From a virus, in the UHGV virus genome UHGV-0277313: 64,000 nt of DNA. One strand, given 5' to 3'. Below the pieces are notes generated by a model, which was not told the DNA's origin, did no database searches, and was given only the letters and a program-made list of their open reading frames with translations. The position numbers were made by a program, and so were the translations under genes. Each line of letters starts with the position of its first letter. Position 1 is the first letter of the stretch. This document shows, piece by piece, positions 8,055-30,068 of the stretch.

Positions 8055-8080
8055 TGTTATATTCCTATTTAAATTTCGTT
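8017..8080. repeat. 64-bp exact direct repeat, copy A (spans a gene start, RBS and the preceding gene's end)
   Basis: tttgtcttgtttttgaatacttacaatattttgtcattgttatattcctatttaaatttcgtt identical to 9567..9630. Confidence 0.85.
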
Positions 8081-8584: not shown

Positions 8585-8593
8585 GTCAAACCT

Positions 8594-9604: not shown

Positions 9605-9630
9605 TGTTATATTCCTATTTAAATTTCGTT
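9567..9630. repeat. 64-bp exact direct repeat, copy B
   Basis: identical to 8017..8080; copies are 1550 bp (three gene units) apart. Confidence 0.85.
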
Positions 9631-10137
9631 TAAAACATCAATGTAATTTATAATAGAAGGGTCTTTGAAAGCTTCAGCAACTGTTTCATAACGTTTCAAA
9701 TATACAGCATCTTCTGTCATAAATTTAGGTATTTTGGTTGCTTTTATACTATTAACAGAATCATTCTCAAATGAATAGTAAAAACTATAATCAGTATCAT
9801 TTATTGCAAATAATATGGCAGGACGCTTGTTAATATCGGTTAAAATAACAAAAATTTGTAAAGGTAAATTTTCGAAATGTTTTTTAAACCCATTGACAAA
9901 GTCTTTAAACAATTCCTCAACATTATCAAACATGATGGTTTTATAATCTAAAAATGAAAGAGGTACATCTAGTGTAGGTGATGTATGTACGTCATATTTT
10001 AAATAATCATCTTTTAAATACTTTGTAAAAACAGATATAAATGCCGTTTTGTTAACTATGTATTTATTATATTCAGATTCTTCTTTAAATCGTGACGAAG
10101 TTGCTTCTTCATAATATTTAAAATATAGATTATTCAT
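9619..10137 (-). CDS. paralog-array protein 7 (C-terminus INYIDVLNEI)
   Basis: 172-aa ORF, tandem family member. Confidence 0.6.
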   Translation of the reverse strand: MNNLYFKYYEEATSSRFKEESEYNKYIVNKTAFISVFTKYLKDDYLKYDVHTSPTLDVPLSFLDYKTIMFDNVEELFKDFVNGFKKHFENLPLQIFVILTDINKRPAILFAINDTDYSFYYSFENDSVNSIKATKIPKFMTEDAVYLKRYETVAEAFKDPSIINYIDVLNEI

Positions 10138-10279
10138 TTTGATTCCAGTTATGAATTTACCTTTATGTTTGAAGAACCTTTTTTCTTGTTTTTTAGCTTA
10201 AAGTAAAACTAAAGGCGAGTCAATTAAAATTGGCTCGCCTTGATACTCATAAAAACACATTTCTTTAAAAAGAATAAAT

Positions 10280-11887
10280 TTAGACATTATTTTCAGCAAG
10301 TGAAACTTTTGTATAAGAATTGATAACATCAGTAGTATTACCAACACCTAAGTTACCAAGTTTGTTATAACCAACTAAATAAGCATCACCTTTTGTTGTT
10401 ACATACCCAGAGTTGTACATTGTCATTCCGTGTACATAATTTAGCGTGAAATCTGCAACATTACTGTTAATAAGTACAAGACCTGTTTCAGCAGAATTTC
10501 CAACGACATTGTTTGATGTATTATTAGAATATTTATATAATTCACCGTTTTCAGTTAAAGCTAACAGTGCATATTTATTATTTTGCCCACCAGATGAAAC
10601 ATCAAAAATGTGTTGCAATTTTTTCACTTTTGCTATTAAAACATTTGACGGATAGTAACTATATGTATTGATATAGGAAAGGTGACATAAAGAACCATCA
10701 TCTAATAAAACCAAACCACCAGAATATAGTGAATCTGTTAAGCTAAGTATATTTTTAATATTTTTAGCAATTTCTTTTTTGGAAGAATCTGTATAAATAG
10801 AATAACTATGGCTTCCAGGGCTATTTGAAGAGTAGTAATATTCTTTTATATTTATTTTATTGTTAGCTTCATAAAGGACATCCAAATGATAAACTGTCGA
10901 ACTATAATGTTTATATACAATTGATAGTATCTTCATACTTCCTGACATTAATTTGAAAGAGTATGATTTAGGTGAATATTTTGCCGAAAAATCAGAATAA
11001 GGGCCAGTACAGTATAATTTATGATCATTAGTAATGTAATAAGTCGCCCAATCAGCAAATTGGTATATGTCTTTTACGTTTGTCGCTAGTTCAATAAATG
11101 TTGTTGCTTCTTGTCCATTATTGCTTAACAGACGATCAGAGTCACTTCCGATACCAAAAAGTGTATCATCATTTGTTATATAGAAAGCATTCACGTAACC
11201 TTCATATATTGTTTTTACATAATCAGCAATTTTTTCAAAATCCCCAGTTTTTGAATAATATTGCTTTGAAGATATAAATAATTCATCGTTTTCTGTTACA
11301 TACATTGGCATTAAATATGTCCCAGAGTATGACATTCCCAAACAAGCATCGCGAACATTTTCAGCCACTTTTGTAAATTCAGTAACTGCATTTGTTGATG
11401 AAGGATTACCTAAAAGACGTGAATGACCAGCGGCATATAAATCACCATTATCCATAATCAAATAAGTGCCATATTGGCCACATAATTTAATTTTCTTAAC
11501 GCCTTGACCTAAACGTTGCAACAGAATTTGAATCTCTTTATTTGTATCAGCAATTGTTGAGCCTGATAAGTCTTGCATGCCGACATGTTTTGCAGTATAG
11601 TTAATTTGTTCGTTTTGGTTCGTAATAACCATATTACCGAAATTCAATAACTCATTACCGTCATTATCTGTAAATGTCATTTCAGAATCATTTGGTTTAG
11701 GAGAGAATTTAGTAATCTTTAAATCACCTAAATCAACTTTTCCTGATGTTGTTTTAATTTCAGAAATCTTTTGTGCATAGTTTTCAAAAGGTGCAGTTTT
11801 ATTAATATCTGAACCTTTTTTCACAATAGACTGATATATGTCTTTTTTAATTTTAAGAATTTCTTTAATCTGCTCAATATTTGACAT
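10280..11887 (-). CDS. RCC1-like beta-propeller repeat protein (possible structural/receptor-binding protein)
   Basis: 535-aa ORF with repeated G.N..G.LG-like units (LYAAGHSRLLGN, LFGIGSDSDRLLSNNG, LVGYNKLGNLGVGNT) characteristic of RCC1 blades. Confidence 0.55.
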   Translation of the reverse strand: MSNIEQIKEILKIKKDIYQSIVKKGSDINKTAPFENYAQKISEIKTTSGKVDLGDLKITKFSPKPNDSEMTFTDNDGNELLNFGNMVITNQNEQINYTAKHVGMQDLSGSTIADTNKEIQILLQRLGQGVKKIKLCGQYGTYLIMDNGDLYAAGHSRLLGNPSSTNAVTEFTKVAENVRDACLGMSYSGTYLMPMYVTENDELFISSKQYYSKTGDFEKIADYVKTIYEGYVNAFYITNDDTLFGIGSDSDRLLSNNGQEATTFIELATNVKDIYQFADWATYYITNDHKLYCTGPYSDFSAKYSPKSYSFKLMSGSMKILSIVYKHYSSTVYHLDVLYEANNKINIKEYYYSSNSPGSHSYSIYTDSSKKEIAKNIKNILSLTDSLYSGGLVLLDDGSLCHLSYINTYSYYPSNVLIAKVKKLQHIFDVSSGGQNNKYALLALTENGELYKYSNNTSNNVVGNSAETGLVLINSNVADFTLNYVHGMTMYNSGYVTTKGDAYLVGYNKLGNLGVGNTTDVINSYTKVSLAENNV

Positions 11888-12318
11888 ATCTTTTATATTA
11901 AATCTTTTTAAATTAGTGTGTTCAATACATAGAACAATAATTTAAACAATTCTAAACTATTCGTCATTATGTCAGTTGATTTTTAACAGACCATACATTG
12001 GCATTACGTTTAAATGTACCCTCATCACATATTTTATTTAGACCGTTTTAGGAGGTCTTTAAAATGCCAGCAACAGCTATTTTAAAACACTTCATAATCT
12101 TTAATGAAGTTTGAATGTAAAATCTAGATTTTGAATCTATTGCAGTACAATATAATGCATTTGCACTATGTCAACATATGTGTTAATATATAATAGATAT
12201 TGCTGTTTTCGTCTAATTTGTCTACAATATAAAATACAAACATTTGTCAAGAAGTGTATATAATAAAATAAATTCTTTTTTGTTGACATAGTCTGACATT
12301 GGTATAGTTTTAATTTTC

Positions 12319-12347
12319 TTGACAATTTTTTGTAAGTTTGTTATTGT
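12319..12347 (+). promoter_or_regulatory. sigma70-like promoter (TTGACA-N17-TATTGT) in divergent AT-rich control region
   Basis: ttgacaattttttgtaagtttgttattgt about 40 nt upstream of the 12387 start; region 11888..12386 separates divergent gene blocks. Confidence 0.5.
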
Positions 12348-12386
12348 TTAAAAAATCTAAAATTTTAACTATTCACGGATTTTAAA

Positions 12387-13442
12387 ATGACTTATTTGAC
12401 TGAAGAAGAAAGAGCTGCTAGAAAACAGTTGGCCCAACAAAAATACAAAAACAAAGAAGAAGTAAAAATAAGAAAAAGATTCAATGATTGCAACAGTCGA
12501 AGAAGACGGTTGGGTCTTTCTGTTTTCACATTTAATGAATGGCAGGAGTGGTATAAAAACAAGCATGCGCCAAAAGGATCATTGCTTCATAAATATAAAC
12601 AGTTTATTCAAGGTAGAAAAAAGAGAAAGTTGGAAATAATTTCGTTTGAAAAATATTGCGAATTGATTGCTGAACGTAATAGAAACAAATCAGCTAATGC
12701 TGAAGAGAGACGTTTACGCGCAAATCAAAAGGCAAAAGAAAGATATCATTCCAACGAAGAAGTGCGAAAAAGAAAAATGGAATATAGTAAGAAATACAGA
12801 AAAGAACATCCAGAAGTTCGAAGTAAATGTTATTATAAAAAGGCATACGAAAAGTATAAAGAAAAAGTTGCAAACATGTCTGAAGCAGAACGTGAGCTGT
12901 TGAAAAGAAAAATTTATGAAAATAAACAGAGATTTTTAAAAAATATGTCCGAAGAAAAACGTTTGGAATATAAAAAGAAACATGCTGCTCGTTCAAGAGA
13001 CTATTGGCGTAATTTGTCACCTGAAAAACGTCTGGAACTTAAAGAGAGAAAAGCTGAATACTATAAAAATCGTTGCAAAAATAATTTGGAAAAAGTATAT
13101 GAACATTTGGTAAAACAACGTGAAAGAACAGGTATAAAGAAAAAGGATAGTTTTGAAGATTACTTGAAAAAGAAACGTGATATGGATAATAAAACAAATC
13201 ACTATAATGAAGACTTAAGTTTTCTTAATGAAAAATTCCCGTTAAGTCAAAAATTATTGTCTATTGAAGAATACAATAGAAGAACATTTATAATGCAAAA
13301 ATTACAACGTGTCCTTAAACATTTAGGTTTATCAACTAAAATTTTGATGAATTATAAAAGAGGTCACTATACAATGCAACAACTAAAGACTTTTTTAGAA
13401 ATGTACCAAAATAAAGAATGGAAAAATAATGAACGAAAATGA
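12387..13442 (+). CDS. highly basic K/R/E-rich repeat protein (possible nucleic-acid-binding)
   Basis: 351-aa ORF; about 45 percent K/R/E; recurring units such as AKERYHSNEEVRKRKMEYSKKYRKEHPE and KRLEYKKKHAARSRDYWRNLSPEKRLELKERKAEYYKNR. Confidence 0.6.
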   Translation: MTYLTEEERAARKQLAQQKYKNKEEVKIRKRFNDCNSRRRRLGLSVFTFNEWQEWYKNKHAPKGSLLHKYKQFIQGRKKRKLEIISFEKYCELIAERNRNKSANAEERRLRANQKAKERYHSNEEVRKRKMEYSKKYRKEHPEVRSKCYYKKAYEKYKEKVANMSEAERELLKRKIYENKQRFLKNMSEEKRLEYKKKHAARSRDYWRNLSPEKRLELKERKAEYYKNRCKNNLEKVYEHLVKQRERTGIKKKDSFEDYLKKKRDMDNKTNHYNEDLSFLNEKFPLSQKLLSIEEYNRRTFIMQKLQRVLKHLGLSTKILMNYKRGHYTMQQLKTFLEMYQNKEWKNNERK

Positions 13443-13749
13443 GATCAGAGCTTTTCTAAAAGAAAACATTTATAACATTAAAAAGTTTGCAAACGGAAGT
13501 CCATATGATGGTGAAACAGTTTCCTATAATTTGGGAAACACTTTTGTTGTAACTTGTGAAGAATATTTTGATAAAGCATCATATCAATTAAGGTTTAATA
13601 ATAAAATTTCAGAAGATATATTGGCAAAAATTATCTTTGAGTATGTTGATAAACTTTATAAAGAGGTTGTTGAAAAGCCTGATAAAGATTCAGATTGGAA
13701 TTGGCGTTTGTCGCAAGCAACAAATACAACCTTAAGAAATCAGTGGTAG
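13429..13749 (+). CDS. hypothetical protein
   Basis: 106-aa ORF, ATGA start/stop overlap with upstream gene. Confidence 0.5.
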   Translation: MNENEIRAFLKENIYNIKKFANGSPYDGETVSYNLGNTFVVTCEEYFDKASYQLRFNNKISEDILAKIIFEYVDKLYKEVVEKPDKDSDWNWRLSQATNTTLRNQW

Positions 13750-13751
13750 AT

Positions 13752-14261
13752 ATGCAATATAGATGTGTTGGTTTCGAAAGACTTGCCTTTAGCGGCTTTG
13801 ATCTTTTTATAAACGATTATCGTGATCACGATAATTTATTCGCATCAGGTTGTATTATCTTTTACAAAAAAGATAATTTGTTTCATTTTGTGCTATTAGG
13901 TCGATTAGGAATTTATGTATTAGCACCAGTTGTACAGTATATTTTAAAAGATATTGTAGAGGGCAGCATTTTAGATGCCGATAATTTCTATGCTTATGGT
14001 TTTAATAGTAAAGAAGAGGATCGATATATCACAAATAATTTTGTAAAAGTTAAACCTTTTTATGTGCTTTACGAAAAATTATCAGACGGAAACAACTTAT
14101 ATTGCGATTGTGAAAAGTTTTGTATAGGTTTAGAAAGAAATCAGTCTTTGATATTTAATAGTAAAAAAGATGCTCAAACGTTTATCAAAGATAATCAATT
14201 AAAGAATAACATTATTAAAGTTGATAGGTTGTTTCAAATGAAATTTGGGGATGCTATATGA
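13752..14261 (+). CDS. hypothetical protein
   Basis: ORF trimmed to internal ATG (MQYRCVG...) directly after the upstream stop. Confidence 0.5.
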   Translation: MQYRCVGFERLAFSGFDLFINDYRDHDNLFASGCIIFYKKDNLFHFVLLGRLGIYVLAPVVQYILKDIVEGSILDADNFYAYGFNSKEEDRYITNNFVKVKPFYVLYEKLSDGNNLYCDCEKFCIGLERNQSLIFNSKKDAQTFIKDNQLKNNIIKVDRLFQMKFGDAI

Positions 14262-15851: not shown

Positions 15852-16235
15852 ATGGAATATTGTTTTTTGTTTGGTGAAGTAAGAGGAACTCAAGATAAAT
15901 TTATGTTTTTTAAATCTTCATGTAAGTTTAAAGAAACAAATATTGCCAACACAGTAAACGAGTTTATGAATTTATGTGAACTGGCATTGCAACAGAATAA
16001 TGTAATAAAAATTTATGGACATTATACAAAAAAGTCACATGTTACTCATTTTTATGCAGAAAGCACAACTATTTATACAGAAAAACCTCAACATGTCTAT
16101 GTTGGTTGGAAAGTTTTACGGGATAAGTTTAAAAGAAGGTTCGGGAGAGATGTAGAAATACTTCATGAAAAATATTATGGATCAATCATTGTTAAAAATA
16201 CTAATATTGGAAGTAATTTATTAAAAGATATTTAA
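15852..16235 (+). CDS. hypothetical protein, tandem duplicate B (C-terminus IGSNLLKDI)
   Basis: 127-aa ORF, paralog of 15454..15834. Confidence 0.6.
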   Translation: MEYCFLFGEVRGTQDKFMFFKSSCKFKETNIANTVNEFMNLCELALQQNNVIKIYGHYTKKSHVTHFYAESTTIYTEKPQHVYVGWKVLRDKFKRRFGRDVEILHEKYYGSIIVKNTNIGSNLLKDI

Positions 16236-16252
16236 ATAGCGTGGAGACTTTA

Positions 16253-16459
16253 ATGAACGATTATGATGTTAAAGAGAAGTTGTTGTTGATATTGATTCTA
16301 ATTATTATCATCGCATTGCCTGCCTCGTGCAGTTATGATATAGGTAAAATTGAAGGTAAAGCTGAAACGGTCCAAGAACTGTGTTCAAAAACTGAATACG
16401 ATTTCTGTGTAAAAGTACAACAGAAACCTATATATACTCTTAAAAATGATATTGACTAA
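16253..16459 (+). CDS. small predicted lipoprotein / signal-peptide protein
   Basis: hydrophobic LLLILILIIIIALPASC segment followed by Cys; 68 aa. Confidence 0.45.
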   Translation: MNDYDVKEKLLLILILIIIIALPASCSYDIGKIEGKAETVQELCSKTEYDFCVKVQQKPIYTLKNDID

Positions 16460-16851
16460 ATGAAAGAAACAATATGTTCCAAAACCGAGAAGAATTAAAA
16501 GAAGACTTCGATGAAGTTCCTGTGAACGAAAATCAAATTTGTTACCCTGATGAAGATTGTTTGGAAATCTTAAAGGAAAATGAAGATTGAATAGACATAG
16601 CTTTTTTAAATTATTTCCAATTCTATACGACGTAAAATGATTTGTAAAATGGTGGAAAAAAGCATTTAGTTGAAAAGTGTTATATCAGATTTGGAAGAAT
16701 TCCTAAAAATGAAAAAAGTGGAATTCATTTAGGTAAAGATATACGTTTTGAAAATGGGGTTTCTGTTTGGGATGCTGTAAAATTAAAGGACGGTTATCAT
16801 CTTGTTGCTCCTCTTCAAGGAAATACTTGCACTTATACCGATTTTATAAAA

Positions 16852-17046
16852 ATGGCGTTTCCTCAAGAGTGGTATGGAGATTTCGTTTCACATGAACCAA
16901 TTTATGTCGTTTCTGGTGATGAAGTCGGTCGTGGAAGTGATAATGAACCTTTACTGAAAAATATAAAAATAATTGAAGAATTACCTTTTGATTATTTTAA
17001 CTATGGCCCCACATATGAAAAGTATATGCCAAAGGAAAAAGAATGA
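16852..17046 (+). CDS. hypothetical protein; frame is open from 16648 without an ATG, upstream ATG at 16649 is in the +1 frame across an A6 run (possible frameshift or pseudogene)
   Basis: frame-1 ORF ...KHLVEKCYIRFGRIPKNEKSGIHLGKD...YVVSGDEVGRGSDNEPLL continues to 17046; MVEK start at 16649 joins it with a -1 shift at ggaaaaaag. Confidence 0.4.
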   Translation: MAFPQEWYGDFVSHEPIYVVSGDEVGRGSDNEPLLKNIKIIEELPFDYFNYGPTYEKYMPKEKE

Positions 17047-17099
17047 ATGATTGTTGGTAAAGGAAAATTTTAAAGTCCATGAAATGTTTATAAAAAAAT

Positions 17100-17520
17100 T
17101 CGTGAAGTTGAAAAATTGTGTGCACTTTAATAATAGGTAATGATAAGTGGTGCTTTGCGATAAAAGAAATGCTTTATGATAAAAAATAAAGAAAGATTAT
17201 AATAAAAGATAACTATAATAATGGTAAAAGAAAAAGAGAGTATTATAATGGGATGAATGAAAGTTAATGTTGTGTGAGTGATGATTAGGATGGGGTGATT
17301 TTGGTATGCAGGGAAAATGATGTATGAAGTAGTGAAGATGAAGACAGTAAGAGATGAAAGATATTAGTCTGAAGAAAGGGTAAGATGATTGGGGAAATGA
17401 GTGTGGGGGTTATGTGGTGGCAAAAGGTGAAGAAGATGAAGAATATGAATAACGGCGATGTTTATGGTGTTGCATGAAAATTGGATGAATCGAAGAGTAT
17501 TGTGTATTCTATCTCGTGCC
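17100..17520 (+). other. C-depleted purine-rich tract (G/A/T-rich, ORF-free on both strands)
   Basis: about 400 nt with very few C on the plus strand; reiterated gatgaag / gtgaagatgaag / gatgatt-gggg units; G-runs. Confidence 0.6.
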
Positions 17521-17713
17521 TGTTTTTCGGTATAACTATATTATCGAAAGGGAATAGAGCAGATAGGAAAACGGCAAGCGGGGCGCAAGCCCCTATACCG
17601 AAAGCCTTATTGACTATATAGGGATATATAGTAGAGTTAGGTATAAGGAAATCAGTATAACAGGCTTGATAGGTAGTTAATACCGAAAAACCCGCTTGCC
17701 GTTAAAATTCCTG

Positions 17714-17742
17714 TTGACAAGTTTCTGATTTTTTGATAGTAT
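17714..17742 (+). promoter_or_regulatory. sigma70-like promoter (TTGACA-N17-TAGTAT) inside ORF-free region
   Basis: ttgacaagtttctgattttttgatagtat; no ORF downstream for about 800 nt. Confidence 0.6.
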
Positions 17743-17748
17743 ATAACT

Positions 17749-18300
17749 ATCGAAAGGGAATAGAGGATAAACAGGGATTTAAGGTATCAGAGGAAACTGG
17801 TATCATAGGTAAAGCTTTTATTAAGCATTGTTTGACATATAAGACAGTGTTTAATAAAAGCTTTATTTGTTAATGGTACGGTATCCGATACCTGATAAAC
17901 AGTTAAGCTGTTGTATCACTTGTTAATAAAGAGTGGTATAGCGGGTTAACGACCTTTAATCAGTCATTATAAAGTGGTAAAGCAAAGTAATGACGAAATG
18001 ATTAAAGGAATTATCAGGTTCACGTGTGAAAAAGAAAGCACGGCGGAACTATATACAGAATAAATAAAGTGAATGAAATGTCGTTTCAATTTTGTTGAGT
18101 TTAGAAACGACTGAAAACTTTAATCTTAAAATCAATTAAGGTTAAAGTGAAACAATCTATATTATTTAATATAGATTTAAACAGTTAAGGCAAGACTGAA
18201 AAGAAATGCCTTGATAGGTAATAACTCAACGGGATCAAATTCCCTTAATGAAAATAGATGAATTAAAAATAGTTTGTTTATTTTTCGTTAAGGGTGAAAA
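17749..18300 (+). ncRNA. candidate large structured ncRNA (boundaries uncertain; structured sequence also upstream 17531..17710)
   Basis: nested helices: cggcaagcggg(17572)/cccgcttgccg(17693); ggggc-GCAA-gcccc GNRA hairpin; aaagcttttatt(17808)/aataaaagcttt(17853) 12-bp closing helix; ggtatc-c-gatacc; aacag-ttaag-ctgtt; direct repeat ataactat(att)atcgaaagggaatagag at 17531 and 17740. Confidence 0.35.
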
Positions 18301-18549
18301 TACGGTGGTGAGCCAATCGACAAAAAGTTTCACGACCGTAAAACAAACCGTCTGAAATGGTTTGGATTTGTCTAGGTCAGTTTACTGATTTGAACTCACT
18401 CCTGCTTTAAGTGTATGTGAGAAGTAGGCTGTGGAACAAATCTGTATTGAAATAGATTACTCTAAGTCATTTCAGATATTTTAAGAACAGATTGGAATAA
18501 ACTAAAATAGAATGAAATGGTTTATTCCGAAACAAGAAAGGAAAAGAAA

Positions 18550-18963
18550 ATGATTAGAAACTTCACGCCGCATAAAATCAATCTGTTCGCCGAAGACGGC
18601 AGAATATTGAAAGTATTCGAGCCGGAAGGGCTTGCAAGGGCGGAACAAAAGGCCATCATCGTTGACGAAATTCAATTCGGGAACGACATTGTTCCCGTCA
18701 AAAAGATGATTTTCGGGAGCGTCGAAGGACTTCCCGAAACGGCGGGAGAATACGATAAATTTATCGTGTCGTCCATCGCCGCACAGGCGGCGATGGAGAC
18801 GAACCATCCGTTGAAAAATCAGCTCTTGGTCGTTGCAGACCCTGTTCGCAACGAAGACGGACAAATTATAGGCTGTAAAGCCTTTTCGACTTTCCGAGAT
18901 GAGAATGATCTCGGCGAGATTATGAGCTTGGCTAACAAGCTCAACGACAAATACGCTCGGTAA
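18550..18963 (+). CDS. hypothetical protein
   Basis: ORF with SD aaggaaaagaaaATG; first gene of the GC-richer plus-strand block. Confidence 0.55.
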   Translation: MIRNFTPHKINLFAEDGRILKVFEPEGLARAEQKAIIVDEIQFGNDIVPVKKMIFGSVEGLPETAGEYDKFIVSSIAAQAAMETNHPLKNQLLVVADPVRNEDGQIIGCKAFSTFRDENDLGEIMSLANKLNDKYAR

Positions 18964-18971
18964 TATTAGAT

Positions 18972-19010
18972 TTAACAAGGTGGGAGTTGTCCAGATTCCC
19001 ACCCTTTAAA
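18972..19010 (+). terminator. conserved intergenic hairpin element 1 (TTTAACAAG-stem-loop-stem-CTTTAAA)
   Basis: ggtggga...tcccacc stem between ttaacaag and ctttaaa. Confidence 0.55.
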
Positions 19011-19054
19011 TCTATTCCACAGTGGGGTGGATCCAACCAGAAAGGGAAAATAAT

Positions 19055-19348
19055 ATGACAATCAAAAAAGAAAAAAATTTCACCGTCACCGTAACTTACT
19101 TCAATGATTATAAAGGGGAATGGGTGACTGTTCCCCTGTCCGAAGCCCCGGACGAGTTGATAAACCCGTCTGCAACCGTGGCAGATATTGCCAATATGCA
19201 CGCTGAAATGCGTGCAAGTTTAAAGGCGTTGTACGACGCCTACGATGAAATGGAGCAAATAGAGTATCAGGAATGGTACTCTGAACAACAGGCGGCGGCG
19301 CAGAAAGCCGCCGAAATAGAAATGGCGTACAAACAAAGGTACGCCTAA
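19055..19348 (+). CDS. hypothetical protein
   Basis: ORF from internal ATG with SD agggaaaataatATG. Confidence 0.5.
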   Translation: MTIKKEKNFTVTVTYFNDYKGEWVTVPLSEAPDELINPSATVADIANMHAEMRASLKALYDAYDEMEQIEYQEWYSEQQAAAQKAAEIEMAYKQRYA

Positions 19349-19367
19349 ATGTTAATGATAGGACAAG

Positions 19368-19464
19368 ATTGGACAGAAATTGTTTAGTCTTGCCCTATCT
19401 AGTTTCATTTAGTGTAACTAGTTTTTATAATTGCACTAAATGAAACTAGATCAGAGTGATCTAG
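19368..19464 (+). promoter_or_regulatory. three consecutive hairpins/palindromes in the leader of the 19485 gene
   Basis: gataggacaaga...tcttgccctatc; 12-bp stem tttcatttagtg/cactaaatgaaa with loop containing tataat; perfect palindrome ctagatca-gag-tgatctag. Confidence 0.45.
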
Positions 19465-19484
19465 TACAGCAAGGAGTTGCAAAA

Positions 19485-19832
19485 ATGAAAGCACAAAATT
19501 ACACATATAGAACGCCGTTCGGAGACGAACTGGCGATCATAACAGGAAAATCAGCAGCACGGGGACGTGATAACCTTCGCAACACCCGCAAAGCCCTAGC
19601 AGCTGCAAACGATATCATATCCACTTTACAAGCGGATGTTAAAGAAAGGCACGCTTGTACAGTTCGTTTGCGTCTTCGCAAGAACAAAGAAATTGCCAGT
19701 TTGTTGGCAGAGGTTGCCAGTTTGAAAGCTGAAAATGAAGCTTTGAAAGATGCGGCGGAGATGTGGCAAACTATTGCCAAATCGAGTGTGACGGCATCTG
19801 GAGAGCTGTTGGATGCTCTCGAAAATGACTAG
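19485..19832 (+). CDS. hypothetical coiled-coil protein
   Basis: ORF from ATG after aaggagttgcaaaa; ASLLAEVASLKAENEALKDAAEM segment. Confidence 0.5.
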   Translation: MKAQNYTYRTPFGDELAIITGKSAARGRDNLRNTRKALAAANDIISTLQADVKERHACTVRLRLRKNKEIASLLAEVASLKAENEALKDAAEMWQTIAKSSVTASGELLDALEND

Positions 19833-19838
19833 ATTGAA

Positions 19839-19880
19839 TTTAACAAGATGGGGATTTGAATAAGATCCCCATCCTTTAAG
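19839..19880 (+). terminator. conserved intergenic hairpin element 2
   Basis: tttaacaag-gatggggat-ttgaataa-atccccatc-ctttaag. Confidence 0.55.
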
Positions 19881-19904
19881 TTCAACTAATGAAAGGAAAC
19901 AGAA

Positions 19905-20198
19905 ATGAATATGGAAAAATACAACTATCGTTTCGGGGCAACAATGACCGAGATTATCAAAAATCTCGGTGTTGAAACGGCATTGCCAAACCCTGATTTG
20001 TCTCTGACGAACTTGACACGTGCTGTCAAGACGCACGTGCTTCAAACGCTTGAAAAAGACGGAAAGCAATACGTTATCGTCTCTGATTGCGGCGAGTATG
20101 CTATCGCCGAAATTAAGGCGATTGGTTCTGCGGAAGATGTTGCCAAATTCGTCAAAGAAAATGACTTGGGAGAGGAGTTGATCTCCGAAGTCATTTAA
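19905..20198 (+). CDS. hypothetical protein
   Basis: 97-aa ORF, SD aaggaaacagaaATG. Confidence 0.55.
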   Translation: MNMEKYNYRFGATMTEIIKNLGVETALPNPDLSLTNLTRAVKTHVLQTLEKDGKQYVIVSDCGEYAIAEIKAIGSAEDVAKFVKENDLGEELISEVI

Positions 20199-20203
20199 TC
20201 AGC

Positions 20204-20246
20204 TTAACAAGGTGGAATTGAATTTGATTTAGTTCCACTCTTTAAA
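20204..20246 (+). terminator. conserved intergenic hairpin element 3
   Basis: ttaacaag-gtggaa...ttccac-tctttaaa. Confidence 0.5.
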
Positions 20247-20272
20247 CTGATTTTTAATTAGGGGGTGCGCAA

Positions 20273-20476
20273 ATGATAAAAAAGATCTTGAAGTTTATGA
20301 ATGATGAAATGATGATCCGTTATGACATAATGTATCCCATAGAATATGGGTACATTGAGAACGGTAAAGTGATATGTTCGAAATGGCGTGCACGGCGTCG
20401 TTTGGTCATTGATTGGTTTTTCGACGTGTGGATGAAAGGCCTTTCTGCTTACTCTTTGAAGAAAGTTGAGGAGTGA
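20273..20476 (+). CDS. hypothetical protein
   Basis: 67-aa ORF with SD gggggtgcgcaaATG. Confidence 0.5.
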   Translation: MIKKILKFMNDEMMIRYDIMYPIEYGYIENGKVICSKWRARRRLVIDWFFDVWMKGLSAYSLKKVEE

Positions 20477-20751
20477 TTAAAATGAAGCAATTCGAAATAA
20501 AGATTGTCAATGAACTTTGTGGTGTGCCAGACGAGATGTCGCCTGATACATCACTGACAGCATCACTAAAAGTTGCTATTAACTTTTACGAATGCATTGT
20601 GGAATATCTGTATTTTTCCTATATGCGATTGGAGAATTCGAATTTTCTGAAACGTCCGTGGTGGATGTTTTGGAAAAGTAAAGAAGAATACTTTCGGGAA
20701 CAATACATTCTCGATCGTAAAAGAAGAGGATTAGATCGAAATGCTTTATAG
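20473..20751 (+). CDS. hypothetical protein
   Basis: 92-aa ORF, overlapping start/stop with neighbours. Confidence 0.5.
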   Translation: MIKMKQFEIKIVNELCGVPDEMSPDTSLTASLKVAINFYECIVEYLYFSYMRLENSNFLKRPWWMFWKSKEEYFREQYILDRKRRGLDRNAL

Positions 20752-20968
20752 TCTTCTTTTAATTGCGGTTGTTTTGTCAACGACTGCCTTTGTGTGTTAC
20801 AGTATGATTTCTGATTTTATTCAGAAACCGTACAGAAAAGAAAATTCGGGGAAAGTTTTGGTTGACAGAAGTTATTTCCCCGAAAAACGAACCGTTCGTC
20901 CTGAATTGGTCGCCTTGGCAAAAAGGTTGTCGATTGAGGATGAACTTGATTACAGAAGATGGAAATGA
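20741..20968 (+). CDS. small membrane protein
   Basis: 75-aa ORF with N-terminal TM segment LLLIAVVLSTTAFVCYSMI. Confidence 0.5.
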   Translation: MLYSLLLIAVVLSTTAFVCYSMISDFIQKPYRKENSGKVLVDRSYFPEKRTVRPELVALAKRLSIEDELDYRRWK

Positions 20969-21057
20969 ATGCTTCTGTAATAGTTGTCACTGAATTTGGT
21001 GTGCTAAATAGTAAGTGAGGAAAATTCTTCCTTACTTTACTTTTAAGGAGAAAGAAA

Positions 21058-21249
21058 ATGGTGAAATTCAAGAATACAAAATTTGTTAATTGGTGTTATT
21101 ATCACTGGAAACAGTTGAGGGGCACATTAACAAAGACAGACATCGCTGTTCATTGTGCTATTTTCAATAACCAAAAAGTTGTTGAATTGCACGCGGCTCA
21201 ATTGAAACCGTCTGATTATACAGGCGTTGTGAAAAGAGGTGTAAGATGA
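21058..21249 (+). CDS. hypothetical protein
   Basis: 63-aa ORF, SD aaggagaaagaaaATG. Confidence 0.5.
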   Translation: MVKFKNTKFVNWCYYHWKQLRGTLTKTDIAVHCAIFNNQKVVELHAAQLKPSDYTGVVKRGVR

Positions 21250-21464
21250 GTAGTTTTATCAAAATCGACTATGGTATCGTGAGAAAAGAATCGATTTCTG
21301 GTTTAACAAGGGCAAAGGGACAATACCCTTGGAACGGGAAGACGCACTGGGACATCGAAGTGCATCTTCAAGGCACAAAAGTGTGTTTGGAATTTGATTC
21401 GGAATTTGAACGAAACACGGAGTTCAGCCGAATTGCAAACGAACTCAAAAAAGAGGGTGATTAA
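21246..21464 (+). CDS. hypothetical protein
   Basis: 72-aa ORF, ATGA overlap. Confidence 0.5.
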   Translation: MSSFIKIDYGIVRKESISGLTRAKGQYPWNGKTHWDIEVHLQGTKVCLEFDSEFERNTEFSRIANELKKEGD

Positions 21465-21465
21465 A

Positions 21466-21978
21466 ATGGCCAAACAAATTGAAGATTACACAGCGGATGA
21501 ACTGTCCGCGAAGATTAAGGCGATTAAGGCGGAACGCGAACGCACGGCAAATGCACTCAAGCGATATGAGGAAGAACTGGAACGGAGGAAAAACAAAAAC
21601 TGGCTTCCGTTGAAAGAAGAAGTTAACTTTACCATAAATAAGCTAACCCTTAGTACAGCTTGTATCGAAATAAAAGTTCGAGAAGGATTTTATGATGAAG
21701 ATTCGTTTCATAAATATCTTTCCGCCTTAAAATCCATTAGAAAGGCGTGGTTTGCTAATTCTAAAGGCGAACCGATTGATATTGAAGTTTTGAAGCCGTT
21801 ATTGCGGAAAGGCTGGGTTGCAATGGATAAAGACGGGGGTTGGTATTGGTATGAAAAAAAGCCGCGTAGATCGTATGCCAATTGGGGGACTGGGATTTGC
21901 CTTTCTAGAACTCTGGAAGGTTTCAATATCAAACCCGTAGAAAATTGGGAAAACAGTTTGCAGGAGTGTGGGTCATGA
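21466..21978 (+). CDS. hypothetical protein
   Basis: ORF trimmed to ATG after gggtgattaaaATG. Confidence 0.5.
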   Translation: MAKQIEDYTADELSAKIKAIKAERERTANALKRYEEELERRKNKNWLPLKEEVNFTINKLTLSTACIEIKVREGFYDEDSFHKYLSALKSIRKAWFANSKGEPIDIEVLKPLLRKGWVAMDKDGGWYWYEKKPRRSYANWGTGICLSRTLEGFNIKPVENWENSLQECGS

Positions 21979-22220
21979 AAAAAGATGAAAAGATATTCCT
22001 GCAAGCACGAAACCAAAAGAAGATGAAGCTTAACAAATGGTGGAAAAAGCTTCTGGAAAAATACCCTTTTATGGGATATGAACATGGAAGCATGAAATAT
22101 CTTTCTATAATGGGAAAAGATACAGGGCTTAAAATAAATTCACCAAGGTTGATTAAAAAGAACATCCTGAAACGGTCAAACGACCAAACCAAGTGGATTG
22201 TAGGAGGTGGGAATGAATAA
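21975..22220 (+). CDS. hypothetical basic protein
   Basis: ORF trimmed to ATG overlapping upstream stop. Confidence 0.45.
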   Translation: MKKDEKIFLQARNQKKMKLNKWWKKLLEKYPFMGYEHGSMKYLSIMGKDTGLKINSPRLIKKNILKRSNDQTKWIVGGGNE

Positions 22221-22461
22221 TCCTATAATCATTGACGTTGAATGGAGAGAAGTTTCCTGTTCAACGGAAGCGGTTATTGAACCGAAAGTAATGGTTCAGA
22301 AACAAAAGTGGAACAAGGTGGATAAAGTGATATTCACCTTGTTTTATTCAGAAATCGCCTTTATTGTTCTGCGGTTCATGTATGAGTGTTATACAAATTA
22401 CATGTTCTGGTCTGAACATGGTGGTGTAACTTTACATAAGGTGTTCTTTGGAATGCCTTAA
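22213..22461 (+). CDS. hypothetical protein
   Basis: SD taggaggtgggaATG. Confidence 0.5.
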   Translation: MNNPIIIDVEWREVSCSTEAVIEPKVMVQKQKWNKVDKVIFTLFYSEIAFIVLRFMYECYTNYMFWSEHGGVTLHKVFFGMP

Positions 22462-22471
22462 GGAGAAAACA

Positions 22472-23275
22472 ATGTTAACTATTGAAAAATTGAAAAAAAT
22501 CGCATCCACATGTCCTTATGGTGGTTGGTTGGCAGTAACCGAAGGTACTGGTGAACTTGTGTGGTCATGGTTTAAAAGAAAACCGTATTTTAACGGTGAT
22601 GCTTGGGTGCGAGACGAAGATGAAGACGTAGAATGCTGTGAAGTATTTGATTGGCTCAACGAGCAGGGTGTAAAGTGGCATCAACTTGATGACTTGCTCG
22701 ACTTGATTGATACATCACCGGAAAGCGTTTGCATCAAGTGTGGAACTGCTAAAAAACAAAAACCTTTTAAACCGATTATAGACAAATTGAAACCGGAGAT
22801 AAAAGATGGCTTTCTGTGTGATGACGGTAAGAACATTTATTGGTCACCGGGTAATTTTGGTTTCGAAATCGCAGACCAAAATTTGGCATTCCCTGAAAAT
22901 GAATTCGTTTTCAAATTGGTGAAAAAACCTAAGGGGACGAAATATTGTCATACAAAAGAAAAGACGGTGATGATGTGCAGGGGCAATGGTTACCGTACTG
23001 TATATTTGTTCTCAACATTTAAAATGTTTGAGACAAATCTTTGCGAACAAAAGGTGTCGTTTGACGATTTGAATAAAGACTTCGCAAAAATTGAAAAAGG
23101 CACGGTAAGTTTTGCAAAGGTGTACCGTGATTACGGAACGTGGGGGTCTCCGAAATGGGTCGAGTGTAATAAAGAAGATTACATTCGCATTGTTAAAGAT
23201 TTTGACGAGTACAGCAAAACTTGGAAAGCAAAATACGACGAAGACCAAAAACAGTTAAAACTGGTTCACTTGTAA
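22472..23275 (+). CDS. hypothetical protein
   Basis: ORF from ATG after aaggagaaaacaATG. Confidence 0.55.
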   Translation: MLTIEKLKKIASTCPYGGWLAVTEGTGELVWSWFKRKPYFNGDAWVRDEDEDVECCEVFDWLNEQGVKWHQLDDLLDLIDTSPESVCIKCGTAKKQKPFKPIIDKLKPEIKDGFLCDDGKNIYWSPGNFGFEIADQNLAFPENEFVFKLVKKPKGTKYCHTKEKTVMMCRGNGYRTVYLFSTFKMFETNLCEQKVSFDDLNKDFAKIEKGTVSFAKVYRDYGTWGSPKWVECNKEDYIRIVKDFDEYSKTWKAKYDEDQKQLKLVHL

Positions 23276-23297
23276 CAACAAAGGAGAAAAACGAGAG

Positions 23298-23678
23298 ATG
23301 TTAGAAAAAATCAAAAAAGAGATGGGTTTCGAATTCATGGATTTGGAACCCTTGTTCTACGAGGCTGTCTTAAGCCTTGAATTCGTACCGAACCCGTATG
23401 GCATTGTACGGGTGTTAAGTGCGCTCGACATGAAAAACATCTGCACGTGGGCGGACAGATGGATTGAGGGCATCGAGGAATTCAATCAATACCGCGAAAA
23501 AAAGTACGCGGCAAACACCTTGGAAAAGTTCAAGACGTTTGCCGAAATGTTGTATTCGGAACTGGAGAGCGACAGTGAAAAGAAGACGTATTTTATTTAT
23601 ACGCCTTCTGAAGAAGCAATCAATGCGTTCAAAAAAGAAAACGGGATTGCCGAAGACGACGACGGACTTCAGTGGTAA
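23298..23678 (+). CDS. hypothetical protein
   Basis: 126-aa ORF, SD aaaggagaaaaacgagagATG. Confidence 0.55.
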   Translation: MLEKIKKEMGFEFMDLEPLFYEAVLSLEFVPNPYGIVRVLSALDMKNICTWADRWIEGIEEFNQYREKKYAANTLEKFKTFAEMLYSELESDSEKKTYFIYTPSEEAINAFKKENGIAEDDDGLQW

Positions 23679-23679
23679 A

Positions 23680-23723
23680 TTTAACAAGAAGTGCATTGGG
23701 GTTACTGATGCACTTCCTTTAAG
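23680..23723 (+). terminator. conserved intergenic hairpin element 4
   Basis: tttaacaag-aagtgcat-tggggttactg-atgcactt-cctttaag. Confidence 0.55.
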
Positions 23724-23751
23724 TTTACAACATCAACAAAGGAGAAAGATC

Positions 23752-23973
23752 ATGAAACGTATGGGTCGTGAATTTTACAGAACGGGAAAAATCGAAGCAC
23801 AGAATGATGTGCTGAAAGGACGGTATGCGATTTATAAAACCCGTCAAGGGTTGGAAATCGTTTTTCATGAGTCGTATCGTGCGGACATTATGTCTGACAT
23901 TGAACGACAGATTGAAAAGAACCCGCGCGGAACGTGGTATTGTGAAAAGAAATATCACGTACTCAAGAAGTGA
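23752..23973 (+). CDS. hypothetical protein
   Basis: ORF trimmed to internal ATG (MKRMGREF...) with SD aaaggagaaagatcATG; upstream part of listed ORF overlaps previous gene. Confidence 0.5.
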   Translation: MKRMGREFYRTGKIEAQNDVLKGRYAIYKTRQGLEIVFHESYRADIMSDIERQIEKNPRGTWYCEKKYHVLKK

Positions 23974-24043
23974 AATTATAAAGAAGACATCTGAAATATG
24001 GTGTCTTCCTATAATTTCACTTGACAAGGAAAGGAGTAAGACG

Positions 24044-24214
24044 ATGAAAAAACAATTTCACAGATTACTTCTGACAAAGAGTCAGATGGAAAAACAAGCT
24101 AGACTGTATGCTGAACAGTTTGGCGATGATTATGATGAAGCTTTTGACGAGATGATAAAGTCTTGCCAAAAGTATAACAAATTTATTCTAGAAGGGAGTA
24201 AATGTGATGAATGA
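24044..24214 (+). CDS. small hypothetical protein
   Basis: 56-aa ORF with SD aaaggagtaagacgATG. Confidence 0.45.
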   Translation: MKKQFHRLLLTKSQMEKQARLYAEQFGDDYDEAFDEMIKSCQKYNKFILEGSKCDE

Positions 24215-24380
24215 GAAGGAAAGAATTTTCAGTCGTCTTAAACCGATTTCCTGCGTTGTCATGCTGATAGGTTTTATTCCTGCAATGATAACAGCTTTTG
24301 GCGACACGTATCTGACTTTTGTTGATTACGTGTCAGCGTTCGGTGGGTTCTTCGGAGCCTGTCTTATTAATGAAATTTAG
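24207..24380 (+). CDS. small membrane protein ending ...CLINEI
   Basis: 57-aa ORF below the track cutoff; TM segment SCVVMLIGFIPAMITAF; C-terminal LINEI. Confidence 0.4.
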   Translation: MNEKERIFSRLKPISCVVMLIGFIPAMITAFGDTYLTFVDYVSAFGGFFGACLINEI

Positions 24381-24389
24381 GAGGAAGAA

Positions 24390-25049
24390 ATGAGTGTTAG
24401 CTTCGGGACAAAGTACGAACGCGAATTTACGGAACTGCAAATGGACGAAACCGGAGGGTTGCCCAAAGAAAAGTTCGAAAAGTTGTATAAAAACAATAAA
24501 CCGTCTGTACGGTATTTTTTATATCGTGCATACGGTTTGATGAAGAAAGCAAACGAAGCCTTTGCTGTTTCGTCGTGTGTGTCGAAAGCGACGAAAGACA
24601 AATCCAAAAAAATATGTTCGGAAGTCAGAGAATGTCTGATAAATATGTTGGTAGAGTGTGACGAAATGGAAAGATTTTTCGACACTGTAAAAACATATGG
24701 CGACATGCTGAAGAGCAATGCCGGATTTGTTAAAATCAGGACAGAGAATGATTTACGTTCAGTTTGTAATGATCATTCTGTGTTTTTTACAACGGACATG
24801 GAAAAGGCATGGTCTTTCTGGGAAAGAAAACAAAGTCTTGAACATTTTAAAGACACTTGTTACAACTCAAAAGAAATGCTCAATTTCTTTAAAGAGTTGG
24901 AACAGTCTTCGAGTGATACAGAGGTTAAGAAACATGCGAAACGTCTGTATGAAACAATCGAAGAACAGTTGAGGTTTTTCAAGGTATGTTATGGTGAGAC
25001 GTACCTTGATAACGCAAAAACTTTTGTCATATTTAACAAAGGAGAATGA
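24390..25049 (+). CDS. hypothetical protein
   Basis: 219-aa ORF, SD ggaggaagaaATG. Confidence 0.55.
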   Translation: MSVSFGTKYEREFTELQMDETGGLPKEKFEKLYKNNKPSVRYFLYRAYGLMKKANEAFAVSSCVSKATKDKSKKICSEVRECLINMLVECDEMERFFDTVKTYGDMLKSNAGFVKIRTENDLRSVCNDHSVFFTTDMEKAWSFWERKQSLEHFKDTCYNSKEMLNFFKELEQSSSDTEVKKHAKRLYETIEEQLRFFKVCYGETYLDNAKTFVIFNKGE

Positions 25050-25051
25050 CA

Positions 25052-25201
25052 ATGGAACCGAAACATGTTTCTAAAGGCATGAATGCCTATTTGGCCGAAA
25101 TGTTCAATAAGTGGGAAAGTGAAAACACACCCGCTTGGCAAAACAAAGAAATCCGCAAAAGCATTCTGGAATGGCGTGAAAAACATCCGGAATTGAAGTG
25201 A
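25052..25201 (+). CDS. small hypothetical protein
   Basis: 49-aa ORF with SD aaaggagaatgacaATG. Confidence 0.35.
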   Translation: MEPKHVSKGMNAYLAEMFNKWESENTPAWQNKEIRKSILEWREKHPELK

Positions 25202-25208
25202 GGGTAAA

Positions 25209-25919
25209 ATGGGAGAAACAGAAACAAAAACAAACACAAGATATAATCGTTCGGGTATTGAAACATATCTGAAACGAAATAAAGTGTTGCCGACAAAAAT
25301 CGGTTTTAAGGATTGTACCTTGACCGATGAAGACGTGGAACTTGTGAAAGGTCATAAGTTCGAGTCTGTCACTTTAAAAGATTGTCATATTCCAAGATTA
25401 TCAATGTTACCGAGATCTGAACAATACGTATTCAAGTATTCGGTTATTGATGAATACGACAGTCTTGCATTGACAAGTGAAAAACGAAGATTGGTTAAGT
25501 TTGACACTTGTCCGACAGTTATTCCGCATCTGAAGTGGTTGAAAGATTGGTTTCATATGTTGTTAATTATTGAAACACCGATCTTGACCGCAGATGGTTT
25601 GGAAAACATAACGTTGAAGTACAACAACGAAATTGCACTGATGGAATATACCTATTGGGACGCTTTTTATGTTTCAACATGTACGAAAGGTTTCGTACAG
25701 TCTGTGTTGGATCATTTACCCAAAGGTATTGTTCCTGATTACGACAACATGTACTTGCCCGTGACAAAGAAGACTTACTTGTATGATGGTGACGGTGTCT
25801 TTGCAACACACGTTCACATCGGCGCAAAAGATTGTGTGAAGTTACGGAACAAGTTGCAAAAAGCCTTGTCGAACATTGCAAACGGAAGATTAGGAGAGAA
25901 CAGTCTAGAAAGGATCTGA
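25209..25919 (+). CDS. hypothetical protein
   Basis: 236-aa ORF. Confidence 0.55.
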   Translation: MGETETKTNTRYNRSGIETYLKRNKVLPTKIGFKDCTLTDEDVELVKGHKFESVTLKDCHIPRLSMLPRSEQYVFKYSVIDEYDSLALTSEKRRLVKFDTCPTVIPHLKWLKDWFHMLLIIETPILTADGLENITLKYNNEIALMEYTYWDAFYVSTCTKGFVQSVLDHLPKGIVPDYDNMYLPVTKKTYLYDGDGVFATHVHIGAKDCVKLRNKLQKALSNIANGRLGENSLERI

Positions 25920-26086
25920 AAAATGATAACACTGATGATTGTGTTGTTATACCGTTACACAACTATGTCAGGATTTATGGCAACCGTCTTAACGGTATGT
26001 TTGTGTTCATATCCGTCGTCTTTGGTGACTTTAGCTATTTTGACAATAGTTCCCAAAGACGACTTTTTTAATGAAGGAGAAAGAAA

Positions 26087-30025: not shown

Positions 30026-30035
30026 AACAAATAAA

Positions 30036-30068
30036 GGGAAGGAGTTGAAACATATTCCTTCCCTTTTC
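30036..30068 (+). terminator. intrinsic terminator
   Basis: gggaagga-gttgaaacatat-tccttccc followed by tttt. Confidence 0.7.

Follow-up and report, generated by a model that had tools for sequence, protein, structure and literature searches.

The sequence considered here is a window of 64,000 nucleotides (nt) from the virus genome UHGV-0277313, and forms part of a 276,920-bp metagenomic phage scaffold (ENA ERZ28615576, POOL19-1_SAMEA4731444 scaffold_19). Examination of the window revealed a family of two-stem hairpin elements in spacers between genes. These elements head a long + strand cluster of small genes, directly 3' of a promoter-rich non-coding stretch. A first-pass annotation made from the letters alone had described four such hairpins, and we found all four on the + strand, at 18971-19010, 19839-19880, 20203-20246 and 23680-23723. 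All four are real, but the family also has a fifth copy at 23968-24022, and its members are larger than the core first described, since folding with RNAfold and a few extra bases gave elements of about 50 nt. The five elements, named H1 to H5, are given below with their free energies, z scores against shuffles and scores with the covariance model R1 described further on.

18967..19014, + strand: H1, between a 148-amino acid (aa) gene (stop codon 18961-18963) and a 97-aa gene (ATG 19055); lower stem 18967-18975/19006-19014; internal loop CAA 18976-18978 / CU 19004-19005; upper stem 18979-18988/18994-19003; -23.0 kcal/mol, z -6.3; 68 bits
19834..19885, + strand: H2, stop codon 19830-19832, next ATG 19905; lower stem 19834-19843/19876-19885; internal loop CAA 19844-19846 / CU 19874-19875; upper stem 19847-19857/19863-19873; -24.8 kcal/mol, z -7.0; 74 bits
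20198..20251, + strand: H3, stop codon 20196-20198 overlapping the stem, next ATG 20273; lower stem 20198-20207/20242-20251 with one C.A mismatch; internal loop CAA 20208-20210 / CU 20240-20241; upper stem 20211-20223/20227-20239; -18.6 kcal/mol, z -5.0; 64 bits
23675..23728, + strand: H4, stop codon 23676-23678 inside the lower stem, next ATG 23752; lower stem 23675-23684/23719-23728; internal loop CAA 23685-23687 / CU 23717-23718; upper stem 23688-23699/23705-23716; -25.0 kcal/mol, z -6.6; 68 bits
23968..24022, + strand: H5, newly found, stop codon 23971-23973 inside the lower stem, next ATG 24044; lower stem 23968-23980/24010-24022; internal loop AA/C; upper stem 23983-23991/24000-24008; -26.5 kcal/mol, z -7.5; 38 bits, E 2e-5

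The pattern TTAACAAG-N12-42-CTTTAA matches the window at four places, where dinucleotide shuffles predict 0.14. With the stricter TTTAACAAG...CTTTAAR there are three matches (0.01 expected), and not four, because the copy at 20203 reads CTTAACAAG. The nine-base flank alone, with one mismatch allowed, is no commoner than chance (47 matches, 44 expected), and the signal therefore lies in the flanks and the hairpin combined. The flanks that the first-pass annotation had called fixed are thus a real pattern, although not an identical one in every copy, and they correspond to the inner part of a lower stem together with an internal loop. They are not a mere by-product of ribosome-binding site (RBS) composition, as the RBSs are separate and lie further downstream.

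The folded elements share a common architecture. Between 19 and 23 bp are paired in each element, in two stems that make up about two helical turns. The lower stem of H1-H4 is 9-10 bp long and the upper stem 10-13 bp, both ranging from 9 to 13 bp once H5 is included, and the apical loop of H1-H4 has 3-6 nt of variable sequence. The inner half of the lower stem is the former fixed flank, UUUAA/UUAAR; its outer half is copy-specific yet complementary (UAGA/UCUA, UUGAA/UUCAA, AUCAG/CUGAU and GUAAA/UUUAC). The two stems are separated by an asymmetric 3x2 internal loop, 5'-CAA-3' facing 5'-CU-3' and closed by a G-C pair, and the invariant letters of the family cluster at this loop and its neighbours (U9, U10, A14 and G16 on one side; C36, U37, U39, A40 and A41 on the other). 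Free energies of H1-H4 run from -18.6 to -25 kcal/mol, with z between -5.0 and -7.0 against shuffles (-5 to -7.5 across the five elements). The tail after the upper stem is CUUUAAR, with at most three consecutive U and 3-4 U in its first 8 nt, in agreement with the earlier remark that long U-tracts are lacking. A typical intrinsic terminator has a GC-rich hairpin with four or more consecutive U immediately behind it.

The covariance model R1, built from H1-H4 and an extra copy carried by the strain variant L125, was run unfiltered over the window. It recovered H1-H4 at 64-74 bits and, in addition, the degenerate fifth copy H5 (38 bits, E = 2e-5). Nothing further rose above noise in the 64-kb window and the 10 kb past each of its ends, which together cover 84 kb of the ~277-kb genome. 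The family is consequently restricted to 18.9-24.0 kb, a single hypervariable early-gene stretch of ~5 kb, without copies in the other ~79 kb scanned. In H5, two of the 'fixed' lower-stem pairs are changed on both sides (A-U to U-A and U.G to A-U), and therefore even the conserved flank is kept as a helix.

Compensatory change had been proposed from four quoted stem sequences, all of which are correct, and it holds in both stems. In an alignment of the five paralogous copies, 97% of the cells are paired and 12 of the 20 pairs are changed on both sides; none of 500 column shuffles equalled this covariation, and sliding the 3' partner by 1-3 columns brought pairing down to 25-60%. Related contigs gathered by protein look-ups allowed us to assemble a larger, gap-free alignment of 21 distinct copies, paralogs and orthologs, from 12 related phage contigs, with the loops removed. 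Pairing extends there to 94.5% of the cells (92.9% in the lower stem), and 15 of the 20 pairs are changed on both sides, seven of ten in the lower stem and eight of ten in the upper one. The covariation score is 0.656 against 0.219 after shuffling, again with 0 of 500 shuffles equal, and slid registers are paired in at most 49% of the cells. The 21 copies share kinship, so that these cell counts overstate the independent events, and for this reason the five-paralog comparison is the cleaner test. The CAA/CU 3x2 loop is found in 19 of the 21 distinct copies.

The same alignment distinguishes the two strands. It contains 39 G.U cells against 4 A.C cells, which corresponds to 94.5% pairing on the + strand and 86.2% on the - strand, and in all four copies tested the + strand folds more stably than the - strand, by 1.4-7.8 kcal/mol. 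Differences between orthologs are nearly all of the types A-U to G.U, G-C to G.U or G.U to G-C; the others are one C.A mismatch repaired to U-A and one complete swap of A-U to G-C. Most are thus wobble transitions, through which pairing survives in the sense RNA only. The excess of G.U over A.C identifies the folding strand as the gene-sense strand. It is thus in the strand co-directional with the flanking genes that the structure is preserved, and the elements are very probably RNA-level cis elements of some kind.

Each element is tightly associated with the end of the gene that precedes it. The lower stem begins 1-3 nt 3' of the upstream stop codon in H1 and H2, shares one base with it in H3, and contains it in H4, H5 and the extra L125 copy. 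The statement that each hairpin sits just after a stop codon is accordingly right for some of them, which follow the stop by 0-4 nt, and needs amending for those that overlap or contain it. From the end of the element to the next start codon there are 20-41 nt, which include a separate Shine-Dalgarno sequence for the downstream gene, and strong RBSs of the AGGAG type are used by the genome of the window. All five copies are co-oriented with transcription on the + strand, and those genes of the element-bearing stretch that have no element are packed or overlapping. The only other sizeable spacer of this stretch, at 20945-21060, contains unrelated hairpins at 20949-20981 and 21013-21037 (the latter followed by UUUU); this spacer and the 63-aa gene after it have no counterpart in the gene lists of the relatives L190 and L192. 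A promoter scan found no -35/-10 pair in or beside H1, H2, H3 and H5, and a weak 9/12 match after H4 alone. Since no convincing promoter follows the elements, efficient termination at them would silence the downstream genes.

Three further features, none of them a member of the family, belong to the context of the elements.

17714..17742, + strand: predicted sigma-70-like promoter, a consensus match (TTGACA-17-TAGTAT with TG) and the best match upstream of the early cluster
19349..19484, + strand: terminator-like hairpin and 16-bp perfect palindrome; -51.5 kcal/mol, z -7.8
30033..30066, + strand: hairpin AAAGGGAAGGA...TCCTTCCCTTTT with an 11-bp perfect stem, then a T-run; likely the end of this unit, and an example of a more conventional terminator-like hairpin of the genome

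The promoter match lies in a region of ~1 kb without credible open reading frames (17462-18528), just 5' of the first early gene, which is ~80% conserved with the relative L127. Two copies of a 37-nt box, at 17523 and 17729, and several hairpins are also found there; the region is without an Rfam match, and could be a long structured leader or one or more non-coding RNAs. In the block at 19349-19484, which has a strong terminator-like hairpin, the palindrome CTAGTTTCATTTAGTG...CACTAAATGAAACTAG encloses a TATAAT-like hexamer, and the block parts the unit of H1 from that of H2-H5. Judged by its letters, it looks like a terminator combined with an operator-controlled promoter, and it is kept in L128, L131, L132 and L190-L192. 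Further hairpins that run straight into T-runs were found at 41923-41958 and 58669-58702.

The related genomes show how the elements come and go. L127 is a 314-kb IMG/VR contig (IMGVR_UViG_3300013426_000013) with 75-80% nucleotide identity; L190 (LR756497.1, 309 kb), L192 (a 297-kb ENA scaffold, ERZ28576413 scaffold_10) and the Logan contigs L128-L134 and L191 are other relatives, and L182 is a 98% variant of the window phage, whose variant populations comprise at least 17 contigs. When 8 kb were compared by megablast with 50,697 GenBank phage records, no close relative emerged. Relative to L131 and L132, the window gains two blocks, one consisting of the 148-aa gene and H1, the other of a 115-aa gene, H2, the 97-aa gene and H3. 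Relative to L127 it gains 18528-20272 and 22474-23737, each block ending just 3' of an element. L182 lacks a 267-aa gene only, and L192 has an additional 168-aa gene after H4. H4 itself is a discrete presence/absence of 59 nt: L134 reads TAA|AAAGGAG where the window reads TAA|ATTTAAC...ATCAAC|AAAGGAG, and no duplication flanks this indel. The mapped indel junctions fall at RBSs, with AAGGAGA microhomology, or at stop/RBS boundaries, and never inside the elements; in the mapped indels, the far boundary of an inserted block has no element. The idea that the hairpins bound gene cassettes is therefore partly borne out: their region is indeed hypervariable, and they close, on the 3' side, blocks of genes that some relatives have and others lack, but they are not on both sides of these blocks, the junctions are at RBSs and no recombinase domain is found nearby.

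The individual copies differ in their distribution. H1 has an ortholog in L192 only, and is present solely where both of its flanking genes abut, i.e. in the window and in L192. It is missing from L190 and L191, where the homolog of the 148-aa gene runs directly into the region of the terminator-like hairpin and palindrome, and from L128, L131 and L132, where the unit opens with the 97-aa gene; no genome that lacks one of the two neighbours has it. This distribution matches the prediction of an intercistronic function. In L126 no hairpin follows the distantly homologous counterpart of the 148-aa gene, and thus the element is not tied to that gene family. The orthologs of H2 in L190, L191 and L192 differ from it by A-U to G.U and G-C to G.U changes only. 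The C.A mismatch of H3 is repaired to U-A in the variant L125, and its closing G.U is G-C in L191. H5 is the sole copy with an ortholog in every relative that reaches its position and has a compensatory A-U to G-C pair in its upper stem; its loop is AA/C in the window and CAA/CU in all ten relatives with an ortholog. In the H4 of L191 the loop collapses to a single bulged C (CAA to CAG). A rearrangement was observed in L125 (a variant from SRR29133681), whose positions 1-310 correspond to window 19349-19617: a different gene end and the extra family member, the TAA stop of which lies inside the conserved TTTAAC core, stand in place of the palindrome/promoter block and of the first third (5') of the 115-aa gene. 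Taken together with its spacer, this extra hairpin has 84% identity with H2 and the spacer of H2, which suggests a duplication or an exchange between copies.

We propose, with a probability of roughly 45% and by analogy with known phage systems, that the elements serve an early polycistronic transcript as intercistronic signals of the RNase III type, for processing and for stabilisation. Among the functions listed in the first-pass annotation, RNase processing is the best fit to elements of about two turns, with a conserved asymmetric loop and two covarying stems, located in intercistronic spacers on the sense strand. An antiterminator target, also listed there, receives no positive support: the apical loops are unconserved, and the elements recur after individual genes and not after promoters. 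By analogy with T7 and SP82, an endonuclease specific for double strands, be it RNase III of the host or an enzyme of the phage, would recognise the helix and the conserved loop and would cut once on the 3' side, at or near the internal loop (the CU side). The upstream message would then be left ending in the stable upper hairpin, shielded from 3' exonucleases, and the downstream cistron would be freed with a strong Shine-Dalgarno sequence of its own. Since the lower stem starts at or within the stop codon, it would be melted for a moment by each ribosome that terminates there, and processing may therefore compete with translation of the upstream gene. The elements travel with accessory genes that are gained and lost in this hypervariable region, and would insulate, in portable form, neighbouring cistrons that lack translational coupling. 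In T7, substrates that contain an internal bubble are likewise cut once, on the downstream side, as are the internal-loop targets of SP82 (PMC1935012). U-G wobbles, enriched in the distal box, are among the preferences common to the RNases III of B. subtilis and E. coli (PMC11780869). In our elements, U.G or G.U is the commonest pair at the position ~10 bp above the loop (12 of 21 copies), a likeness to the distal box that is suggestive only.

Several observations weigh against RNase III. The 3x2 internal loop is smaller than the 4x5 loop obtained for T7 sites with the same folding, and the variants in the H4 of L191 (bulged C) and in the H5 of the window (AA/C) mean that the loop is not absolutely required. 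A fixed loop sequence is not known to be required by bacterial RNase III, and the conserved CAA/CU may point to a protein other than RNase III. Model R1 reaches at most 11 bits on T7 400-8000 and at most 13 bits on SPO1 1-14000, so that the relation is one of analogy and not of homology. A permissive terminator scan flags H2 and H4. Finally, a search of the six frames of the 84 kb, which is less than a third of the genome, with the crude RNase III motif E[FYWLM][LIVM]GD gave no credible match.

These hairpins could alternatively be leaky intrinsic terminators or attenuators, or plain 3'-end stabiliser hairpins operating without RNase III, which would grade expression along the early operon: the upper hairpin and CUUUAAR would stop some of the polymerases, or would block 3' exonucleases after cleavage elsewhere. 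Their placement directly after stop codons is typical of such hairpins, modules of a gene and a 3' hairpin resemble phage 'morons', and the two elements flagged by the permissive scan have, like the rest, a stable GC-containing upper stem followed by a weakly U-rich tail. That tail is nevertheless short and interrupted, whereas other hairpins of this phage run straight into T-runs, and a terminator has no need of a lower stem that pairs across the U-tract with seven of its ten pairs changed on both sides. Nor does termination account for the invariant CAA/CU loop, and without promoters after the elements an efficient terminator would shut off the genes that follow; we regard this explanation as rather unlikely. 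Conservation centred on the internal loop, with stems and apical loop left free, is more typical of a sequence-specific protein, and raises the question of whether the loop and its closing pairs are the binding or cleavage site of a dedicated phage-encoded RNA-binding protein or endoribonuclease, for example a lineage-specific processing enzyme or a factor of the early-to-middle switch. The confinement of the family to one phage lineage and one 5-kb region is in line with this, and the neighbouring proteins, nearly all of them without known domains, leave room for such an unknown factor. No candidate protein was found, however, the natural loop variants AA/C (window H5) and CAG (L191 H4) persist, and the length constraint of ~20 bp is better explained by an enzyme that measures double-stranded RNA as a ruler. 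A dedicated reader of the loop thus appears unlikely. In a bolder version, quite improbable in our view, the elements would be 'cistron connectors' read at CAA/CU by a dedicated phage endoribonuclease or RNA-binding protein, each forming with its upstream gene a plug-in expression cassette. A promoterless ORFan gene could then be inserted into the early operon, or removed from it, without disturbing its neighbours, which would amount to an RNA-level counterpart of integron cassettes.

An explanation at the level of DNA, i.e. an attC-like folded site, a REP- or MITE-like mobile hairpin or a PeSL-like hotspot that drives the gain and loss of cassettes, seems very improbable. It would account for the place of the elements, 3' of gene blocks whose presence varies from relative to relative, and for H4 being by itself a clean 59-nt indel, and the strand asymmetry could also come from the folding of one DNA strand. 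The region is hyperplastic, like the PeSL-bearing regions of T4-type phages (PMC2839356), and the 5' side of the elements, ATTTAAC or GCTTAAC, fits the attC inverse core RYYYAAC. Their 3' side is nonetheless YCUUUAAR instead of GTTRRRY, and the C of AAC is unpaired. The junctions are at RBS microhomology or at stop/RBS boundaries, with no element at the other boundary, and no recombinase or transposase domain was found in the ten neighbouring proteins scanned or in the precomputed Pfam calls of the region. The copies have a single orientation, number five per 84 kb and are without target-site duplications. The outer lower stem, moreover, is copy-specific and includes the local stop codon, and must therefore have evolved in place and not been carried in as a terminal repeat.

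If the elements are indeed RNase III-type processing sites, they give a first handle on the post-transcriptional organisation of early genes in an uncultivated, gut- or animal-associated clade of 277-314 kb phages, in which the early genes are almost all ORFans. They would not overturn current ideas, and would be unsurprising in principle, elements of this kind having been known since the work on T7 and SP82 in the 1980s. They also define a compact RNA motif, absent from Rfam, that covaries clearly and offers a recognition core open to testing. The association of gene blocks with a 3' hairpin of their own suggests how huge phages may keep a hypervariable early operon expressible during gene swaps. 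The motif could also serve to mark early regions in related metagenomic phage contigs.

The 84 kb contain genes for rIIA, a MoxR-type ATPase with a DUF2201 partner, HNH endonucleases, a family A DNA polymerase with an intein, NrdD with its activase, a T4-type spanin and an Rnl1-like ligase; no tRNAs were found in the window, and the proteins neighbouring the elements are nearly all without known domains. On the - strand, a DUF7487 protein (260-1387) has its nearest GenBank-phage matches in multi-copy genes of Prevotella Lak megaphages, the closest cultured relatives of this protein, at 34-35% identity, which is too low for a host to be assigned. Seven consecutive paralogous genes of 159-172 aa form a tandem array at 6540-10137, also on the - strand (23-39% identity, E down to 5e-24). 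The GC content is 26-34% over 1-18 kb (mostly 26-32%, and up to 38% at 4-5 kb) and 36-44% from there to ~48 kb; this abrupt shift, near 17000-18000, coincides with the switch of genes from the - to the + strand and with the start of the early cluster.

Comparison with known elements begins with database searches. No family of Rfam 15 matches the elements in 16000-26000 at E <= 1, and blastn of H2 against the GenBank phages returned chance fragments only. In IMG/VR, the loose core TTTAACAAG-N18-32-CCTTTAA has more than 120 single matches, which is to say chance, and a stricter 20-base pattern has one match, which is not a hairpin; of 50 metagenome-contig matches only that in L182 scores with the model. 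The family is thus new as a family of sequence and structure, with no match in Rfam, the early regions of T7 and SPO1 or the GenBank phages, and the pattern searches of IMG/VR and metagenome contigs place it in this phage lineage only. A reading of the conserved letters as a promoter (TTAACA as -35, TTTAAG or TATAAT as -10) was rejected, the spacings of at least 27 nt being a misfit and the scan finding nothing. K-turns, boxB/nut sites and coat-protein-type loops were rejected by inspection, as there are no tandem G.A pairs and the apical loops are unconserved.

REPs are high-copy elements that occur in both orientations, often paired as REPINs, and are linked to RAYT transposases. Like REPs and BIMEs, the present elements are imperfect palindromes of small size that follow stop codons closely inside operons and may stabilise the mRNA upstream; unlike them, they are five co-oriented copies in 5 kb without a transposase. 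Membership of the REP/MITE class failed on the presence of + strand copies only, the copy-specific outer stems and the lack of a duplication at the H4 indel. Like attC sites, they form imperfect hairpins that follow a promoterless gene on its 3' side, the outer box being paired, the central spacer unpaired and the inner stem topped by a loop that varies; folding is strand-specific in both. The 5' box fits RYYYAAC as ATTTAAC in H1, H2 and H4 and as GCTTAAC in H3, but not in H5 (ATTATAA or ATTATCA). In contrast to attC, the 3' core GTTRRRY is absent, the elements are shorter and cassette boundaries do not lie at them. No integron integrase or attI was found in 84 kb of ~277 kb (recombinase domains were sought in the ten neighbouring proteins and the Pfam calls), and attC membership failed on the 3' core, the integrase and the cassette boundaries.

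In T4-type phages, PeSLs are short conserved intergenic motifs, consisting of a strong sigma-70 promoter and a terminator stem-loop, in hyperplastic early regions that gain and lose small ORFan genes, with recombination taking place between PeSLs (PMC2839356). The present family resembles them in being made of conserved intergenic motifs concentrated in a hyperplastic early region, and differs from them in having no promoter, two stems with a conserved loop, and indel junctions that lie elsewhere. The absence of a promoter alone means that the elements are not PeSLs, and PeSL membership was rejected on both the promoter and the location of junctions in the motif.

Closer parallels are found among RNase III sites. 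In Bechhofer's work on SP82, the downstream product is reportedly dependent on a strong polypurine or Shine-Dalgarno sequence acting as a stabiliser. The Bs-RNase III sites of SP82 and SPO1, those of SP82 likened here by their description, are also internal-loop hairpins in early phage transcripts, cut once downstream (PMC1935012). Model R1 has no match in the host-takeover region of SPO1. For T7, in whose record the sites are not annotated, we folded in the same way five intergenic spacers that we take to be R0.3, R0.5, R1, R1.1 and R1.3. They gave a lower stem, an asymmetric 4x5 internal loop and an upper stem of ~10 bp; the core ACUCAAGG...CCUUUAUGAU is conserved among them while the stems vary, and the lower stem of the presumed R0.5 overlaps the stop codon of gene 0.4. 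Both the T7 folds and the family of the window contain CAAG...CCUUUA near the internal loop, in a different pairing register and without a cross-match of the model, which may be chance or convergent recognition. A T7-like register, with AAG paired to CUU, was ruled out for the present elements by the orthologs of H5, in which pair 12/38 of the alignment A5 changes from A-U to U-A; this covariation therefore fixes the register of the inner lower stem. The elements differ from the T7 sites in their 3x2 loop as against 4x5, in the lack of detectable homology and in the pairing register of the shared letters. They are analogous to R0.3-R1.3, not homologous. In both phages a paralogous family occupies intercistronic spacers of a single early region, sometimes overlapping the upstream stop codon, and in both each member is built of two stems of about two turns, with an asymmetric loop, a conserved core and stems that vary in sequence while remaining complementary.

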